From positions 12,697 to 76,696 of the forward strand of contig JBDKJD010000003.1 in the NCBI GenBank assembly GCA_039796775.1: DNA of 64,000 bases, given 5' to 3'. Positions 8,370-45,107 of this stretch are shown here, piece by piece. Each line of letters starts with the position of its first letter. Position 1 is the first letter of the stretch. The stretch is from Candidatus Parcubacteria bacterium (lineage in GTDB: Bacteria > Patescibacteriota > Minisyncoccia > Phycocordibacterales > UBA5272). A program made the position numbers and the translations under genes. The notes beneath the pieces were generated by a model. It did not search any database. It was not told where the DNA came from and saw only the letters and a list, made by a program, of their open reading frames with translations.

Positions 8370-9761
8370 TTATTGAGTAATTCTTATCTCTTCCATACTA
8401 ACCGTTCTACCATTTGAGGTGTCAACAAGAATAACTTTCATTGTTAAACCCTCCTTATATTCATAAGGTTTTGTTATTGTTATCTTACCATTACGCCCTG
8501 AGAATCTATACGCTGCACCTCCTGGAGCCCAAGGATTAACGCGGGCATTGTAATAAGACTCTGCAGCTAAGCCAACAAGTGATATATTGTTACCTGAGTA
8601 ACCGTCGCCGTTTCTTGCGATCTCTGTTGGCTCTAATTGAAGTTCATACTGTTTCGCGTAATTATCAATACTATAGTCAAGAACGGCTTGAGTATAATAG
8701 CCCCCAGCATCATATATCGACTGAACAAGATTAAAAGAAAGTTTTGGCGTTGGTTTAAAAATTATATTTTCAATAATGACTGAAGTTTTATTACCAAGAG
8801 AATCATAAAGCGCTACACTCACATTCCCGTTATACTCGCCCAAAAACTTTCCTGTAAAACTAATCACCCCAGGACTCTTGTATGTCCTACTCTGCGCAAT
8901 AACTTCATCACCATCCACCTTCCAATTAGCGACTATTTTACCTACTGTGTCTAAGTTCTGACCATAAATAGTAATATAGTAAATACCATTATCTTCTTTT
9001 GAAAACGTTCCATAAGAAGCTGATGGTTTAACCTGTACAGAATTTTGACCATTAACTTCTTCAACTAAAAGATTGCCTGTTGTCTCAGAAAAACCATCTT
9101 CAGAAACTACAGTTATTTTAAGAAACTTACCAATATACTTTTGGGGCGTTGTAACGACTATTGTATTCTGAGCTTTTAAGACAAAATTGCTTTGCTGTTG
9201 TTCTTCACTTGTGGCATCTGTCTTAATAACAACTTTTACTACTTTATTCATTCTCTCCCCAAGAAGAATCGTCTTATATACTCCTGTGAGAGGATCGTAT
9301 TCTTGCTTGACAGCTCTAAGTGAAGGGTTGCCCCCTAAAGGAAAGTTAAGGACCGGTACAGATGACGGAGTTACTGTACTTGGATAAGATGGGTTTGTAT
9401 ATTGTGGTGACGATATTTCGTTTGAACATGTCTCTTTTTGTATCACTTTCCTTGTGATTGAACCAACGCTTCCTGTTGGACTAATTCCGTTTGCAGTCTG
9501 GTATTTTCTAACCCCTGCAACAGTTAAGCGACCGTAAAACCCAGTCGCAGATCCCGATATTATTCCTTTCTCTATCAAAAACTCTTGAAGAGCCGAGACT
9601 TCATTATTAGAGTTACTATCTCTTGACCCAAGACGAAGAACTGGGGTTGTTATAATGAGGCAAGAATCTTCATAAACTTCATCTCCTTGATTTTGGGCAT
9701 AGGAATAACCTCCAAAGCTTAATGAGATTAGGGATAGTAGTAAAAGTTTTTTTATTGTCAT
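8370..9761 (-). CDS. secreted peptidoglycan-binding domain protein (paralog of 5390..6577 in N-terminal region)
   Basis: Signal peptide MTIKKLLLLSLISLSFGGYSYA; EVSALQEFLIEKGII...FYGRLTVAGVRKYQ PG-binding motif. Confidence 0.6.
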   Translation of the reverse strand: MTIKKLLLLSLISLSFGGYSYAQNQGDEVYEDSCLIITTPVLRLGSRDSNSNNEVSALQEFLIEKGIISGSATGFYGRLTVAGVRKYQTANGISPTGSVGSITRKVIQKETCSNEISSPQYTNPSYPSTVTPSSVPVLNFPLGGNPSLRAVKQEYDPLTGVYKTILLGERMNKVVKVVIKTDATSEEQQQSNFVLKAQNTIVVTTPQKYIGKFLKITVVSEDGFSETTGNLLVEEVNGQNSVQVKPSASYGTFSKEDNGIYYITIYGQNLDTVGKIVANWKVDGDEVIAQSRTYKSPGVISFTGKFLGEYNGNVSVALYDSLGNKTSVIIENIIFKPTPKLSFNLVQSIYDAGGYYTQAVLDYSIDNYAKQYELQLEPTEIARNGDGYSGNNISLVGLAAESYYNARVNPWAPGGAAYRFSGRNGKITITKPYEYKEGLTMKVILVDTSNGRTVSMEEIRITQ

Positions 9762-9781: not shown

Positions 9782-9812
9782 ATTATACACGCACACCCCC
9801 CCCCATTATCAA
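9782..9812 (-). promoter_or_regulatory. candidate phase-variable sigma70 promoter: -35 TTGATA, 19-nt spacer containing a G9 homopolymer (C9 on plus, 9796..9804), -10 TATAAT
   Basis: Read on minus strand: TTGATAatgGGGGGGGGtgtgcgtgTATAAT about 20 nt upstream of ATG 9761. Confidence 0.5.
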
Positions 9813-14700: not shown

Positions 14701-15984
14701 TTAACGGCTCAGCCACTCTTTTTCTTGTCGTACTAAATACTTTTCTGCCGGATGGGTTTCGGCTAATATCATCTTCACTGCGCGCTCTAACCTCACACTC
14801 TGTGACCCTTTGCAATACACAACGTCTCCCTTTTGTAATATCTTTACCAACTCCTTCCCCGCTTCTATTGCGTTATCACATTCCATAATATCTATCTCAT
14901 TCATCTTGGCGTCGAGCGCCCCTTCTGCAGTAGCTAGAGAACGGATACCTACAGTGAACAACTTGTGAACTGTCTCTCCTGCTATTGTGCCTAGACGATA
15001 GTGTTCATCTCTTGTATGTACGCCAAGCTCCATCATGTCTCCCAGTACAGCAATCTTCCTGCCTTGTATGTCCATAGAAGCAAGCGTCTTAAGACCGTGC
15101 TCTGCCGCCTTAGGAGAAGCATTATACGTATCATCAATAATAAGCGAACCATTCATTCCAGGAAGAAGACGCATACGACCCTTTGGTGTATCTCCATCAC
15201 ATAGCGCCTGTAATGCTTCAGCTATAGGAATCTTAAGCTCTTTCGCAACTGCAAGAGCTGGGAGCGCGCAATACACAGGAGACTTGCCTACCACTTCTGG
15301 GAGTACGAGCTCATGAGATTCTTCTCCGATATGAATCGTTGCTTTTGTTCCAACATACGGATCACCATAGAGACCGACAGCAGTAGCGCGAATGTCGGCA
15401 TCTTCTTCTATACCAATACTCATCTTGCGAGCTTCTGTTTTCCCAATAAGAGTTGTTTTCGAATCATGATCATCCGCATTCCAAATATAGAGACCATTTT
15501 TCTTAAGAGCTTTGACAAGATATCCCTTTTCTTCAACTACTGCGTCTCTATCCTTAAAAAATTCTATATGTACCGGTACCTTACCGAATTGAGTCACAAC
15601 AGTAACATCAGGCTTGATCCATGTAGTAATACTCTTGATGTCTCCTGGACGATCAGCACCTATTTCTAATACGAGATGCGTTGGATAGTCTTTACCAATA
15701 GCTACGAAGAATCCTCGTATGATCACCAGCATCCATTTAACAGGATTATTCCACGCAGACTTCTCTCCCAAAATGGTAAGCGGAACACCGAACTCACTAT
15801 TCATACTCTTCTCACTACGACGCACATGTACATGATCTTTGAGAACTGTATAAATAGCATCTTTGGTTCCTGTTTTACCGAGATTACCTGTTACTCCAAT
15901 GATAAAAGGCTTATGTCGCTTAAGTGTGAGCTTAGCCTCCCAAGTGAGAATGGTGACGATGAGTGGTTTAATGAGGTCTTTCAT
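14701..15984 (-). CDS. murF: UDP-N-acetylmuramoyl-tripeptide--D-alanyl-D-alanine ligase
   Basis: IIGVTGNLGKTGTK P-loop, DDTYNASP motif, Mur ligase architecture. Confidence 0.8.
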   Translation of the reverse strand: MKDLIKPLIVTILTWEAKLTLKRHKPFIIGVTGNLGKTGTKDAIYTVLKDHVHVRRSEKSMNSEFGVPLTILGEKSAWNNPVKWMLVIIRGFFVAIGKDYPTHLVLEIGADRPGDIKSITTWIKPDVTVVTQFGKVPVHIEFFKDRDAVVEEKGYLVKALKKNGLYIWNADDHDSKTTLIGKTEARKMSIGIEEDADIRATAVGLYGDPYVGTKATIHIGEESHELVLPEVVGKSPVYCALPALAVAKELKIPIAEALQALCDGDTPKGRMRLLPGMNGSLIIDDTYNASPKAAEHGLKTLASMDIQGRKIAVLGDMMELGVHTRDEHYRLGTIAGETVHKLFTVGIRSLATAEGALDAKMNEIDIMECDNAIEAGKELVKILQKGDVVYCKGSQSVRLERAVKMILAETHPAEKYLVRQEKEWLSR

Positions 15985-16016
15985 AAGGGCAGTAATTGGT
16001 TATTAGTAATTGGTTA

Positions 16017-16534
16017 TTAGTTTAACACAAGCGAAATAACTTCATCTGTTAGCTCCTCTTTAGTTTTTCCTTCGACCTTGATGGTTGTCCCGATCTCTTT
16101 AAGTACTTCGTCTATGAGCGGCTGGACATTGTTATTAAACTTCTTGAGCCGTTCTTCTTGAGAAGAACCATCATGAATAAACACTTCTCGACCTCGTGCG
16201 TTAAGACGTTCGAGCACCAAATGATCCGGTGCGGAAAAATGAATAACACTAAACGATAATGTGAGTTTTTTCATATCATTAAACGATCTAGAAGTATACG
16301 GGTTACCACTTACTATCACTAACTTTCTACCTGATAGCTCAGCAAGTAACGAATAGACCTTATCTCGTGTCTCTTGGTAGAACCCCTCATCGCCAACCTC
16401 CTTTTGAAACTCTTTAAGAAGCGTGCTAAAAGAATAATATTCTATGTGCTCGTACAAGGATGCCAAGTGCCCCCCCCTACAGTCGTTTTTCCGCTTCCTG
16501 GCTTACCTATTAACCACACTAACCCTGTTTTCAT
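16017..16534 (-). pseudogene. P-loop nucleotide kinase-like gene interrupted by frameshift in G8 homopolymer (16470..16477)
   Basis: Upstream ATG 16534 encodes MKTGLVWLIGKPGSGKTTV (Walker A) then hits G8 tract. Frame stops 11 codons later. Downstream track ORF (TTG start) continues ASLYEHIEYY... to 16017. One extra G would fuse both into about 172 aa. Confidence 0.55.
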
Positions 16535-16644
16535 ATGCTTACATCCTAGCACAAAGCGTGGCCTAAGGTTCCCGATTTCTTAGATTGTAATCAATCTTTT
16601 GAAATCGCAATACTCTCGAGTGCTGCGCTTTGTGTTACCAATAA

Positions 16645-19200
16645 CTAATTACGCAAGTATTTATATTCCTCACAATCACATTTCTTCACTTTCTTTCCAC
16701 TACCACATGGACATGGGTCATTACGTCCTGCTTTCACCTTAGTATCTACGCCTGCTGTATTCTTATCAGCACCCGGGGCGTCAGGAATGACTTGTACGAA
16801 ATCATTCTGCATGCGCGCCTGCTGTGAAGCAAAGAAAGCGTCGATATTATCCAAGAATGAAATAAGTTCATGCTTAAGCGTATTCTCAAGTGATCTAAAT
16901 GCTCGCAATCCCTCTTTCTTGTATTCGACAAGCGGATCTCGCTGGCCATATGCTCTTAAGTTCACTGAACTACGAAGATGTTCCATTTGATCAAGATGTT
17001 CCATCCAAAGCGTATCAATAACCTGAAGCATCATGATACGGAATATGTGATGTACCGCTCCTTTGGTGTACTTCTCTTCTTTGTCTTTAATAAGCGTTTC
17101 TAGCTCAGGCTTAATAGCTATAAGTTCTTCAAAGACTTCATTAACAATACTTTCATCACCAAAAAGAATTCTTCTACGTTTTTTATAAATACTAGTGCGC
17201 TGATGATTGAGGACATCGTCATACTGAAGAGTGTGCTTGCGTGTATCGAAGTGAAATCCTTCTATCTTCTCTTGAGCGCCCTCTAGCGCACGAGATACGA
17301 GACGTGACTCAATAGGCTCATCTTCTGGGATACCAAAGCGGCCCATCATCGCTTTTATGTTATCTGATCCGAATACTCTCATAAGATCATCCTCAAGTGA
17401 GACAAAGAATTGTGTCTCACCTTTATCTCCTTGACGACCCGAACGACCTCTCAACTGATTGTCGATACGACGAGCTTCGTGACGCTCTGTACCTATAACA
17501 AAGAGCCCTCCGAGCGCTATCACTTCTTCTTTCTCGGCATCAGTCGCACTTGGTCCACCTAGCTTAATATCAACTCCACGTCCTGCCATGTTGGTAGCTA
17601 TAGTGACAGCACCACGAAGTCCGGCATTAGCGACTATCTCTCCTTCCTTCTCATGATTCTTGGCATTAAGTACAGAGTGAGGCACGCCTTCTCGTTCTAG
17701 ATACTTAGAAATAGCTTCGTTCTTTTCGATAGAGATGGTACCGATGAGAACTGGCTGCCCTTTCTCATGAAGCTCTTTGACTTTCTTTGCAAGCGCTTTC
17801 CATTTACCTTTCTCAGTCTGGAATATAAGATCTGAATGATCAATTCTATTAATCGGATTATGCGTAGGCACTGGTGTTACCACTAGTCCGTACACTTTAT
17901 AGAACTCTTCCTTAGAGGTCTCAGCTGTTCCTGTCATCCCTGCGAGCTTCTCATAAAAACGGAAGTAGTTTTGAAAGGTAATAGAAGCAAGGGTGCGAGA
18001 CTCTTGTTCAATTTTTACCCCTTCCTTTGCTTCAACTGCTTGATGAAGACCATCTGACCAGCGACGTCCTGGCTGCATACGTCCAGTGAACTCGTCGACT
18101 ATAATTACCTCTCCATCACGTACCACATACTCACGCTCACGTGCAAAAAGCGCCTCTGCTCTCACCGCTGTTTCAAGATGATGAACATACTTCATCCCTT
18201 CTACTGAATAGATATTAGAAATACCGAGCTTCTCTTCTGCTTTGTTGATACCGGATTCTGTGAGAGTGATTGCTCTTTGCTTCTCATCTACTGTGTAGTC
18301 TTCGTCTTTTACTAATGTCCTAGCAATCTTAGCGAACGTAACATACATCTCACTTGATTCTTGTGCGGGAGCAGAGATAATAAGCGGCGTACGAGCTTCG
18401 TCTATTAAGATGGAGTCGATTTCGTCAACGATTGCATAATGATGCTTACGTTGTGAAAGTTGATCTTTGTTATAGCCGATATTGTCTCTCAAATAATCAA
18501 AGCCAAATTCATTGTTAGTCCCATATGTAATATCTGCTAGATACGCCTCTTGGCGAGTGCAGGGCTTCAAGTAGTCGTAGACAATTTTGTATGAACCAAC
18601 ATCGTCACGCTCTTCGTCATCTGCTTTTTTATCTTTGTCTTCTGTTTCAGCGCTGTCATAAAGATATGATGATTGATGATTAATCACAGAAACAGTAAGC
18701 CCGAGAGCATCAAACACTTGCCCCATCCACACAGCATCTCGACGTGAAAGATAATCATTCACTGTAACAACATGCACGCCGCGACCAGAGAGAGCGTTAA
18801 GATACGCAGGAAGTGTAGCAACGAGAGTCTTTCCTTCACCTGTTCTCATTTCAGAAATATTACCCTCATGAAGAAGGATGCCTCCAATTACCTGTACACG
18901 ATAATGCATCATGTGAAGCGTGCGACGTGAGGACTCACGTACTAGAGCAAAAGCAAGAGGAAGTACTTCGTGTAAAACTTTCTTTTCCTCATGTTTTAAC
19001 TCATCTCCTTCTTTACCTTCGAGCTTGCCAATTACTTCTTTCTTAAGAGAAAGCCCTCTTTCCTTTAATTCTTCATCTGAAAGAGCTTTTAGCTCCTCCT
19101 CATATGAAAAAACCTTATCTACTAAAGGAAGAAGTTTCTTGATAGTCTTCTTAGACTCATCGGGGAAAAACTTTTCTAAAAATGGTATTCCAAGTGACAT
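16645..19200 (-). CDS. secA: preprotein translocase ATPase SecA
   Basis: 851 aa; DEAD-like motor motifs, C-terminal CPCGSGKKVKKC zinc-binding tail. Confidence 0.9.
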   Translation of the reverse strand: MSLGIPFLEKFFPDESKKTIKKLLPLVDKVFSYEEELKALSDEELKERGLSLKKEVIGKLEGKEGDELKHEEKKVLHEVLPLAFALVRESSRRTLHMMHYRVQVIGGILLHEGNISEMRTGEGKTLVATLPAYLNALSGRGVHVVTVNDYLSRRDAVWMGQVFDALGLTVSVINHQSSYLYDSAETEDKDKKADDEERDDVGSYKIVYDYLKPCTRQEAYLADITYGTNNEFGFDYLRDNIGYNKDQLSQRKHHYAIVDEIDSILIDEARTPLIISAPAQESSEMYVTFAKIARTLVKDEDYTVDEKQRAITLTESGINKAEEKLGISNIYSVEGMKYVHHLETAVRAEALFAREREYVVRDGEVIIVDEFTGRMQPGRRWSDGLHQAVEAKEGVKIEQESRTLASITFQNYFRFYEKLAGMTGTAETSKEEFYKVYGLVVTPVPTHNPINRIDHSDLIFQTEKGKWKALAKKVKELHEKGQPVLIGTISIEKNEAISKYLEREGVPHSVLNAKNHEKEGEIVANAGLRGAVTIATNMAGRGVDIKLGGPSATDAEKEEVIALGGLFVIGTERHEARRIDNQLRGRSGRQGDKGETQFFVSLEDDLMRVFGSDNIKAMMGRFGIPEDEPIESRLVSRALEGAQEKIEGFHFDTRKHTLQYDDVLNHQRTSIYKKRRRILFGDESIVNEVFEELIAIKPELETLIKDKEEKYTKGAVHHIFRIMMLQVIDTLWMEHLDQMEHLRSSVNLRAYGQRDPLVEYKKEGLRAFRSLENTLKHELISFLDNIDAFFASQQARMQNDFVQVIPDAPGADKNTAGVDTKVKAGRNDPCPCGSGKKVKKCDCEEYKYLRN

Positions 19201-43854: not shown

Positions 43855-44820
43855 TTATCCTCGGGCGACGAGATAAAAAACATACGCCACATAGATAATA
43901 ATAAACACAGCCCCCTTCCATGCGACAAGGGTATGCTTCTTACCCATAAACATAAAGATAAACAAAAGAAGCGCAGCCAAGAGACCAACTAAAATATCAA
44001 CAATAGATGAAGTTGACACAGTAACTGGTGTGATTATTGATGTGAGCCCGAGTATCCAAAACACATTAAATATATTAGAGCCGACTATATTTCCAACAGC
44101 CAGATCTGTCTCTCCTTTTTTAGCTGCAATGATAGATGTGACAAGCTCAGGCAAAGACGTACCTATGGCGACAATAGTGAGGCCAATGAAGAGTTCTGAA
44201 AGTCCTGCAACTTTTGCTAATACCACCGCTTGCTCGACGAATACTTTTCCTCCAAAGAAGAGCATGACAAGTCCTAGGACGACCAGAATGATAGCGTGTG
44301 GTTTTTTGTAAAGAACTATTTCATCCTCACCTTGAGAGGTTGGGCTTTCCTTCCTTGCAAGCTCTAAAATGTAGTACATAAAAATAGCAAAGAAAGAGAT
44401 GAGGAGTAATCCTTCCCCTCTTGTAATAAGATTCTGAGCGTCACCATTTAAAAGTACATCTTGGGTAACAAACAACACCGCAACCATCGCAAGGAGCGCG
44501 AATGGTATCTCTTTCCACACAGTAGAAGACGCGGCAGTAAGAGGAATAATAAGAGAGCACACTCCGAGTATTATTAATATATTAACAATGTTGGACCCAA
44601 CGATATTACCAAGAGCAATATCAGTGTTACCACCTACCGCAGATACCATATTAACCACAAGCTCAGGTGCTGATGTCCCAAAAGCAACAACTGTTAGCCC
44701 AATAACAAGAGATGACACTCCATATGACTTGGACAAAGAAGACGCTCCACGAACCAATATCTCTCCTCCTGCCACCAAAATACCTAAACCGATGAATAAT
44801 AATAAAAATGTAATAAACAT
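43855..44820 (-). CDS. CaCA family Na+/Ca2+ exchanger (YrbG-like)
   Basis: Two alpha-repeats GTSAPELVV / GTSLPELVT. Confidence 0.8.
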
Positions 44821-44980
44821 AATCCTAGAAGCATACTAAAAAAATAACATGAAACAAAGTGATATATCTATTTCTGGTTCGCAACGACGAGACTCCCATA
44901 GCGAGGGGGGGTATTACCTGTATCTTGTTTAATACTCTCTCGGAAAATATGATATAATCTTCCGATCAGAAAAGATATCT

Positions 44981-45065
44981 AGAGGGTTCGCATAGCGGTC
45001 TAGTGCACTGCCTTGGAAAGGCAGCAAGGTGAAAGCCTTCGGGGGTTCGAATCCCCCACCCTCTG
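44981..45065 (+). tRNA. tRNA-Ser (GGA), class II with long variable arm
   Basis: agagggt...ctgccttGGAaaggcag...caaggtgaaagccttcg ggggttcgaatccccc accctct; preceded by TGaTATAAT extended -10 at 44951..44959. Confidence 0.8.
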
Positions 45066-45107
45066 CAAAATAATGAACACAAAGTGAAACTTTGTGTGAT
45101 TATATTT

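Follow-up and report, generated by a model that had tools for sequence, protein, structure and literature searches.

A poly-G frameshift in a small Paceibacteria P-loop kinase gene: a probable recent pseudogene on an exchanged DNA patch

Does a run of eight G residues that splits a P-loop kinase gene mark a reversible switch, a recently lost gene, or an error in the assembly? This question is raised by a locus between secA and a Mur ligase family gene in a Candidatus Parcubacteria bacterium (assembly GCA_039796775.1, contig JBDKJD010000003.1), within a stretch of 64,000 nucleotides that was analysed at its full length and is called the window here. The initial annotation offered phase variation, recent pseudogene, and assembly error as alternatives. 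Our analysis favors the second, with a probability of about 0.77 that the locus is an inherited, recently formed pseudogene of a small, clade-restricted P-loop kinase; an assembly error is contradicted by further sequence data, and phase variation finds no positive support at the consensus level. The parts of the locus are as follows.

16017 to 16534, minus strand: disrupted kinase gene, a probable pseudogene; 171 aa if the run were G6, and intact 171-aa orthologues align with it end to end
16470 to 16477, minus strand: G8 homopolymer, site of the +2 frameshift, 3' of the Val19 codon GTA and spanning Gly20-Gly21, just past Walker A
16442 to 16534, minus strand: N-terminal fragment ORF of 30 aa plus stop, with the P-loop GKPGSGKTT and then 8 out-of-frame codons
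16017 to 16466, minus strand: downstream frame of 149 codons from TTG, with the remaining kinase fold
16645 to 19200, minus strand: secA, intact upstream neighbour, 851 aa, with Pfam SecA domains
14701 to 15984, minus strand: Mur ligase family gene, intact downstream neighbour, 427 aa, with Mur_ligase_M and Mur_ligase_C domains

The outline of the disrupted frame given in the initial annotation was confirmed on the minus strand: the ATG at 16534 opens the Walker A sequence MKTGLVWLIGKPGSGKTTV, the frame enters G8, and it stops 11 codons on. The full product from this ATG (16534-16532) is MKTGLVWLIGKPGSGKTTVGGGTWHPCTST, followed by a stop codon that ends at 16442. The tract occupies codons 20-22, in the 5' coding region, and the ribosome-binding site of the gene is TAGGAT. 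The second frame starts at the TTG at 16466, three bases past G8, ends at 16017, and holds D104, R110, R114, R116, H121-D122-G123, and R129 (numbering of alignment A1), all invariant in the family. That this frame continues the kinase had been proposed from the letters alone and is borne out by the repaired protein, which matches P-loop kinase models across the junction; in Pfam, the AAA_33 match covers residues 5-137 (E = 5.8e-6). When the tract was changed in silico, G9 gave a single ORF of 172 aa and G6 a single ORF of 171 aa; the G7, G8, and G10 tracts were all out of frame. A promoter-like site inside the gene (16466-16439) was considered and set aside as chance level (1 found compared to 2.1 expected). 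The order secA, kinase, Mur ligase recurs in all seven comparison loci that we numbered L001 to L007, and the Mur ligase of the window is as long as its orthologues. In the NCBI record, only the last 85 codons (16017-16271) are annotated, as a "hypothetical protein" (MEN9551981.1, RI935_358), and the JGI record presents the 149-codon frame as a 149-aa hypothetical protein; neither marks a disrupted kinase. The main practical value of the present work is one of annotation: what these records list as a "hypothetical protein" of 85 aa or 149 aa is what is left of a disrupted 171-aa kinase.

To which family does the kinase belong? Searched against solved structures, the family profile gave full-length matches to 3umf (E = 2.3e-11) and to 1tev, 1qf9, 1uky, and 2bwj (E = 6e-9 to 6e-8). 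The AlphaFold model of the closest homologue (P0001; pLDDT 92, pTM 0.87) was matched by Foldseek to UMP/CMP kinase, AK1/AK5, shikimate kinase, and gluconate kinase at TM scores of about 0.6-0.75, with 0.62-0.75 for UMPK, AK1, and AK5. Model and profile alignment agree on a P-loop NMP-kinase fold with Walker A and with Arg and Asp residues in the LID region: a LID-like R-x3-R-x-R...HDG...R motif aligns to the adenylate kinase LID, and its R110, R114, R116, H121-D122-G123, and R129 are invariant. At the NMP site, the G-F/Y-P-R motif with its Arg is replaced by a nearly invariant GNPY, the kinase-family "sGnpyt" standing opposite "DGYPRE" and "DGFPRT" in the profile alignment. Scores against curated models stay below the cut-offs for adenylate kinase (ADK, PF00406, 19.6 bits compared to 26.8; best NCBIfam adk equivalog, 25.5 compared to 262) and for UMP/CMP kinase (UMP_CMP_kin_fam, 23.2 compared to 207.6); AAA_33 (PF13671) is passed marginally, with 27.1 bits over residues 5-137 against a gathering cut-off of 27.0. 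The proposal of a nucleotide kinase thus holds for fold and remote profile matches and fails at the curated ADK and UMPK cut-offs, and shikimate kinase, also named for comparison, falls short in both Pfam (PF01202, 19.8 bits compared to 22.1) and NCBIfam (20.4 compared to 180). The suggestion of a zeta-like toxin has to be given up: no Zeta_toxin (PF06414) match was found at E<=1 in Pfam or among the top 50 fold matches, there is no antitoxin-like partner, and the secA-kinase-Mur ligase setting is a conserved housekeeping context. As a defence system the gene was also rejected, since PADLOC gives a weak generic match only (kinase VakA, 27 bits). Judged by its profile matches and predicted structure, the protein is a distant relative of the short adenylate/UMP-CMP kinases, outside the characterised families, and is predicted to work like an NMP-type kinase. 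A tblastn search of the 64-kb window for a canonical adk, with an approximate E. coli Adk query, gave no match.

The family is small: a search of 1.84 billion representatives gave 14 clusters at E<=1e-30, a single GTDB species representative carries it, and its named sources are all Parcubacteria, Pacebacteria, or Paceibacterota metagenome-assembled genomes (MAGs). The work thereby defines a tiny, Paceibacteria-specific kinase family resembling adenylate kinases and, as described below, apparently lost repeatedly.

Which tract length preceded G8? The initial annotation held that inserting one G restores a single protein of about 172 aa. This is formally possible, as the G9 product shows, and it is not the ancestral state: comparison with orthologues, which the annotation had recommended, found intact copies in frame and at full length, with the window two bases longer. 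A search of 5.8 billion protein clusters yielded 18 homologues, 17 of them full length and one a fragment (P0009, 98 aa). Nine of the 17 are 171 aa long and the others 172-208 aa, and in the alignment the G9 repair exceeds all 17 by one residue at the junction. There the closest homologue, P0001 (97% identical), has TTV-GG-HLA, which is the G6 translation, and most of the others have V-G-E/D/K and not V-G-G. At the DNA level, two Logan assemblies (L001 and L002) read ACC GTG GGG GGG CAT, a G7 run in frame, and L006 likewise reads GTG GGG GGG in frame; G7 is in frame in these three because their Val codon ends in G. The window reads ACT GTA, G8, CAC, two bases longer than the in-frame orthologues. 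Since the closest orthologues are in frame at 171 aa, the lesion is a +2 expansion and not a -1 loss, and the comparison indicates GTA plus G6 as the probable ancestral in-frame state of the window allele; the obvious +1 repair is wrong for this kinase. Orthologues at <=80% identity lack the tract. L004 (GTA GGA GAG) and L003 (GTA GGC GAA) are both without a run, from which we conclude that the tract is young. Wider scans added little: a pattern scan of metagenomes returned L006 only, which is of the same lineage as L001 and thus gives no new tract length; a search of GTDB genome contigs for the exact tract pattern, allowing a gap of variable length, gave 0 matches; and a GTDB scan with the family profile gave one distant Paceibacterota locus only (L009). 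As the GTDB scans gave no close match, the window's own species is not among the representatives. An exact look-up of the window's SecA returned L005 only.

Homopolymers are a classic site of indel errors, and MAG consensus sequences can carry such errors, so that the true genome might have an in-frame tract and G8 might be a miscall of assembly or sequencing. Several observations speak against this. The same G8 was recovered by a second assembler, in a Logan contig (L005, SRR35185531) that agrees with the window at every position of 5,156 bp (100% identity), the tract included; because this contig possibly derives from the same reads as the window, it excludes an assembler artefact only. The identical GTA plus G8 is also present in a JGI contig from a different metagenome (L007, sample 3300079105), which represents a lineage with distinct single-nucleotide differences, with secA and Mur ligase flanks 81-92% identical to the window, and with an extra 36-nt repeat in the upstream spacer. 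Moreover, the lesion is +2, whereas the usual miscall is a single base, and long ORFs of the window are intact across about 100 A/T runs of 6-8 bases, which argues that the assembly is not prone to homopolymer errors. We regard a miscall as extremely improbable, and assembly error, one of the three explanations first put forward, appears effectively excluded by these comparisons.

Could the split frame still yield a kinase? Relative to the ATG frame, the downstream ORF is in the -1 frame, and the zero-frame sequence G GGG GGC formally fits the slippery heptamer pattern X XXY YYZ, so that programmed -1 ribosomal frameshifting on G_GGG_GGC, or transcriptional slippage on G8, might produce a 172-aa protein with the junction peptide TTVGGGHLASLYEHIEYYSFSTLLK (VGGGHLAS..., the same product as the G9 repair). 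A slippery heptamer followed by a -1 ORF is indeed present, but the features that would accompany a working site are absent: the next 90 nt fold no more stably than shuffled sequence (minimum free energy, -15.2 kcal/mol compared to a shuffle mean of -16.7; z = +0.49), the orthologues are all in frame unshifted, with one Gly fewer, and show no conservation of such a site, and the downstream frame of L007 is interrupted by a stop. Ribosomal frameshifting was rejected for want of a structure downstream of the tract. Transcriptional slippage is, to our knowledge, established for long A/T runs and not for G8. Recoding in either form is thus unlikely, and we would give it very little weight.

The preferred reading, a pseudogene, draws on the disruption of a frame that is intact in the orthologues, on the recurrence of the lesion in further sequence data (L005 and L007), and on signs of subsequent decay. 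Within the gene, L007 differs from the window at 10 positions, all transitions, of which 6 are synonymous, 3 are non-synonymous, and 1 creates a stop (CGA>TGA, codon 115) in the downstream frame, at an Arg that is invariant in the family. The pattern does not depart significantly from neutrality (P = 0.085 for 6 or more synonymous changes among the 10 transitions); the test is marginal, the 6 of 10 leaning slightly toward residual constraint. Compared to the intact L001, the window shows a synonymous excess (10/15, P about 0.01), and its copy has no second lesion besides the frameshift; together, these two observations argue that the inactivation is recent. The recent pseudogene envisaged in the initial annotation is accordingly the alternative that stands, with G8 in L005 and in the diverged L007 and a further nonsense mutation in the latter.

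Loss of this gene is not confined to the G8 allele. In a "Candidatus Pacebacteria" MAG (NCBI GCA_017991855.1, JAGOPS010000024.1; L003, 3845-4363), the orthologue has two in-frame stops, Q53 TAA and E66 TAG, and no homopolymer, and is annotated as ORFs of 52 aa and 98 aa; by these stops it is an independent pseudogene, and its state argues that the gene is dispensable in the clade. In the same MAG, secA and the kinase are separated by an additional gene of 177 aa on the opposite strand. Two other copies also look degraded, with lower confidence given their low-coverage or very short contigs: in L011 (185-705) the P-loop N-terminus and the body lie in different frames, the break (CTT|CAG) falling right after GKSTVGNLL, and in L012 (264-900) similarity is lost after residue 88 and the 3' half is missing. 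Because the L011 break coincides with a short T run and coverage of its contig is about 1.4x, we do not rely on it as a parallel frameshift case.

A reversible poly-G switch, with the kinase ON at G6 or G9 and OFF at G7 or G8 and the assemblies having caught the OFF state, would account for the same split frame. An 8-G run is long enough for hypermutability in organisms where this has been studied, and the tract has the expected form and place, a G/C homopolymer of at least 7 bases (8 G here) in the 5' coding region, in a codon pair, GGG-GGG, that is otherwise absent from 63 Gly-Gly pairs; it is not conserved across orthologues, being absent from those at <=80% identity. Mutability of the tract might also be read from the allele that is 97% identical and in frame with a G7 run, and from the +2 state, which requires at least two slippage steps or a double one. 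Yet the length variation among close genomes that marks a contingency locus is not seen at the consensus level in six assemblies, where the length is constant per lineage, with G8 in the window, L005, and L007 and G7 in L001, L002, and L006. Nor is there an ON form of the allele on record: neither the G6- nor the G9-repaired protein of the window allele was found among about 15 billion proteins. An OFF ORF that is otherwise preserved is seen in the window but not in L007, where the nonsense mutation at the invariant Arg argues against a gene kept for reversible switching, the OFF state not having been kept revertible, and the family was degraded independently elsewhere without any tract (L003). 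Switching by G/C homopolymers is well documented in Campylobacter, Neisseria, and Mycobacterium, and the window itself is rich in long G tracts: runs of at least 7 G are enriched about 6-fold, with 6 overlapping matches for G/C runs >=7 compared to 0.96 expected, a count reached by 0/100 dinucleotide-preserving shuffles, although this enrichment rests on three tracts only in a window of 39% G+C; for runs >=8, two were observed compared to 0.25 expected under an independent-base model. All three tracts of at least 7 bases lie outside intact ORFs, and the other two are promoter-proximal, a layout expected of contingency loci. Taken together, constant length in each lineage, the missing ON form, and the further decay of L007 make phase variation at this gene doubtful.

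The two other G tracts have surroundings of their own. The G9 run at 9804-9796 (minus strand) sits inside a 19-nt spacer between TTGATA (9812-9807) and TATAAT (9787-9782), and this promoter-like site lies about 20 nt upstream of the ATG of the ORF 8370-9761, which encodes a signal-peptide protein of 463 aa with a PG_binding_1 domain; in the Logan assembly L008 this tract (9796-9804) is likewise G9. A promoter spacing of 17 nt is optimal and would be reached here at G7, and a tract in the spacer is the classic promoter-spacer layout of phase variation. The G7 run at 44905-44911 (plus strand) is intergenic; a TATAAT located 42 nt downstream of it, at 44953, precedes tRNA-Ser(gga) (44981-45066), and the divergent ORF 43855-44820 has the run 85 nt upstream. 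Three long G tracts outside intact coding sequence would justify a read-level survey of phase variation in CPR bacteria, and there is a slight chance that the tracts of this genome are genuine contingency loci.

How did two diverged lineages come to carry the same broken allele? The distribution of sequence identity along the locus delimits a patch.

16000 to 16660, no strand assigned: patch of about 0.65 kb comprising the kinase gene and its upstream spacer, with identity far above that of the flanks

Compared to L007, the window is 96-100% identical over 16000-16660, exactly from the secA stop to the Mur ligase start, and 81-92% identical in the flanks. Compared to L001, it is 95-99% identical over 16050-16500, and secA and the Mur ligase gene are 72-85% identical. 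In L004 the kinase gene is at background level (75-81% identical), which argues that no general constraint on the DNA is at work. This contrast in identity indicates that the poly-G allele is on a short patch recently exchanged by recombination between diverged lineages; in the window and in L007, the patch carries the broken G8 allele. Such a sub-kilobase recombination patch with a dead allele, in CPR lineages whose flanking genes are 10-25% diverged, would be a clean example of its kind.

The edges of the patch coincide with a 13-nt motif, and the spacer within it can form a long hairpin.

16640 to 16652, minus strand: 13-nt motif GTAATTAGTTATT, overlapping the secA stop codon
15992 to 16018, plus strand: two tandem copies of the 13-nt motif GTAATTGGTTATT (15992-16004 and 16006-16018), inverted, overlapping the kinase stop and filling the spacer before the Mur ligase gene
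16547 to 16637, minus strand: long hairpin, imperfect and of about 90 nt, in the spacer between secA and the kinase, its end immediately ahead of the TAGGAT ribosome-binding site

The motif GTAATTRGTTATT occurs 3 times in the 64 kb, compared to 0.43 expected, and all copies bracket the kinase gene. This inverted bracketing is kept in L004 and L007, the latter with extra upstream copies within its 36-nt insertion; in L001 and L003, the exact copies are confined to the downstream side of the gene. The tandem copies recur in L001, L003, L004, and L007 and are conserved even in lineages at about 75% DNA identity, and the arrangement suggests a possible role of the motif in Mur ligase expression. 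The Mur ligase ATG (15984) has no recognisable Shine-Dalgarno sequence, and the 32-nt spacer before it (15985-16016) consists almost entirely of the two tandem motifs. The hairpin has a minimum free energy of -34.2 kcal/mol (z = -4.63), and 0/200 shuffles were as stable; it is kept in L004 with one compensatory pair, and in L001 the same basal stem of 9-12 bp encloses only 13 nt. The upstream spacer gave no Rfam match to a riboswitch or other RNA family at E<=1.

From these data we infer the following history. In a recent ancestor of the allele, two codons past Walker A would have become GGG GGG, the change from Gly-Glu to Gly-Gly giving rise to the tract as a run of 6-7 G. Slipped-strand mispairing, the likely mechanism, would then have added two G, turning GTA plus G6 into GTA plus G8. 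Translation from the ATG at 16534 now stops after 30 residues; the other 149 codons, among them those of every conserved catalytic and LID-like residue, are out of frame and without the P-loop, and a functional kinase is probably no longer made. The G8 allele was presumably inherited or transferred once rather than having arisen twice; the lesion is stable enough to occur in both lineages, one of which has since gained a stop codon in the dead gene. A more adventurous interpretation is that the kinase gene, with the inverted 13-nt motifs on either side and the conserved hairpin ahead of it, is a small exchangeable unit moving by recombination among diverged Paceibacteria, with the poly-G either a true switch or an OFF allele that spreads because it is advantageous. 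We consider this improbable; if true, it would be the first case of simple-sequence contingency, or of adaptive pseudogene spread, in CPR bacteria.

Set beside known systems, the protein shares with the short-type adenylate/UMP-CMP kinases (3umf, 1tev, 1uky, 1qf9, and 2bwj) the P-loop NMP-kinase fold, Walker A, and a LID-like motif; unlike them, it scores far under the curated Adk and UMPK cut-offs and has GNPY without the NMP-site Arg. Zeta toxin, or UNAG kinase, is a P-loop kinase of similar general fold class, from which the protein described here differs in lacking any Zeta_toxin profile or fold match.

Poly-G/C contingency loci (PMC8355987 and PMC5084427), known from Campylobacter jejuni, Neisseria meningitidis, and Haemophilus, likewise have a G tract of at least 7 bases near the 5' end of an ORF and are turned ON and OFF by tract length modulo 3, and the same frame arithmetic applies here. 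In those loci, length varies between close isolates while the ORF remains intact, and the products usually act at the surface or in modification; here, each lineage has a single tract length, an additional stop codon is present in one of them, orthologues do not conserve the tract, and the product would be a cytoplasmic kinase. The closer parallel lies with homopolymer-slippage pseudogenes, so that the kind of event is already known and the gene is, in this respect, an ordinary pseudogene. In Bordetella pertussis (PMC1891110) and the M. tuberculosis complex (PMC10334774), an indel in a 5' G/C run likewise truncates the protein and the lesion is passed to descendant lineages, as it appears to be here. 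Unlike in the Bordetella and Mycobacterium cases, the host is an uncultured CPR bacterium, the lesion is +2, and the broken allele is on a short recombination patch that is common to diverged lineages.
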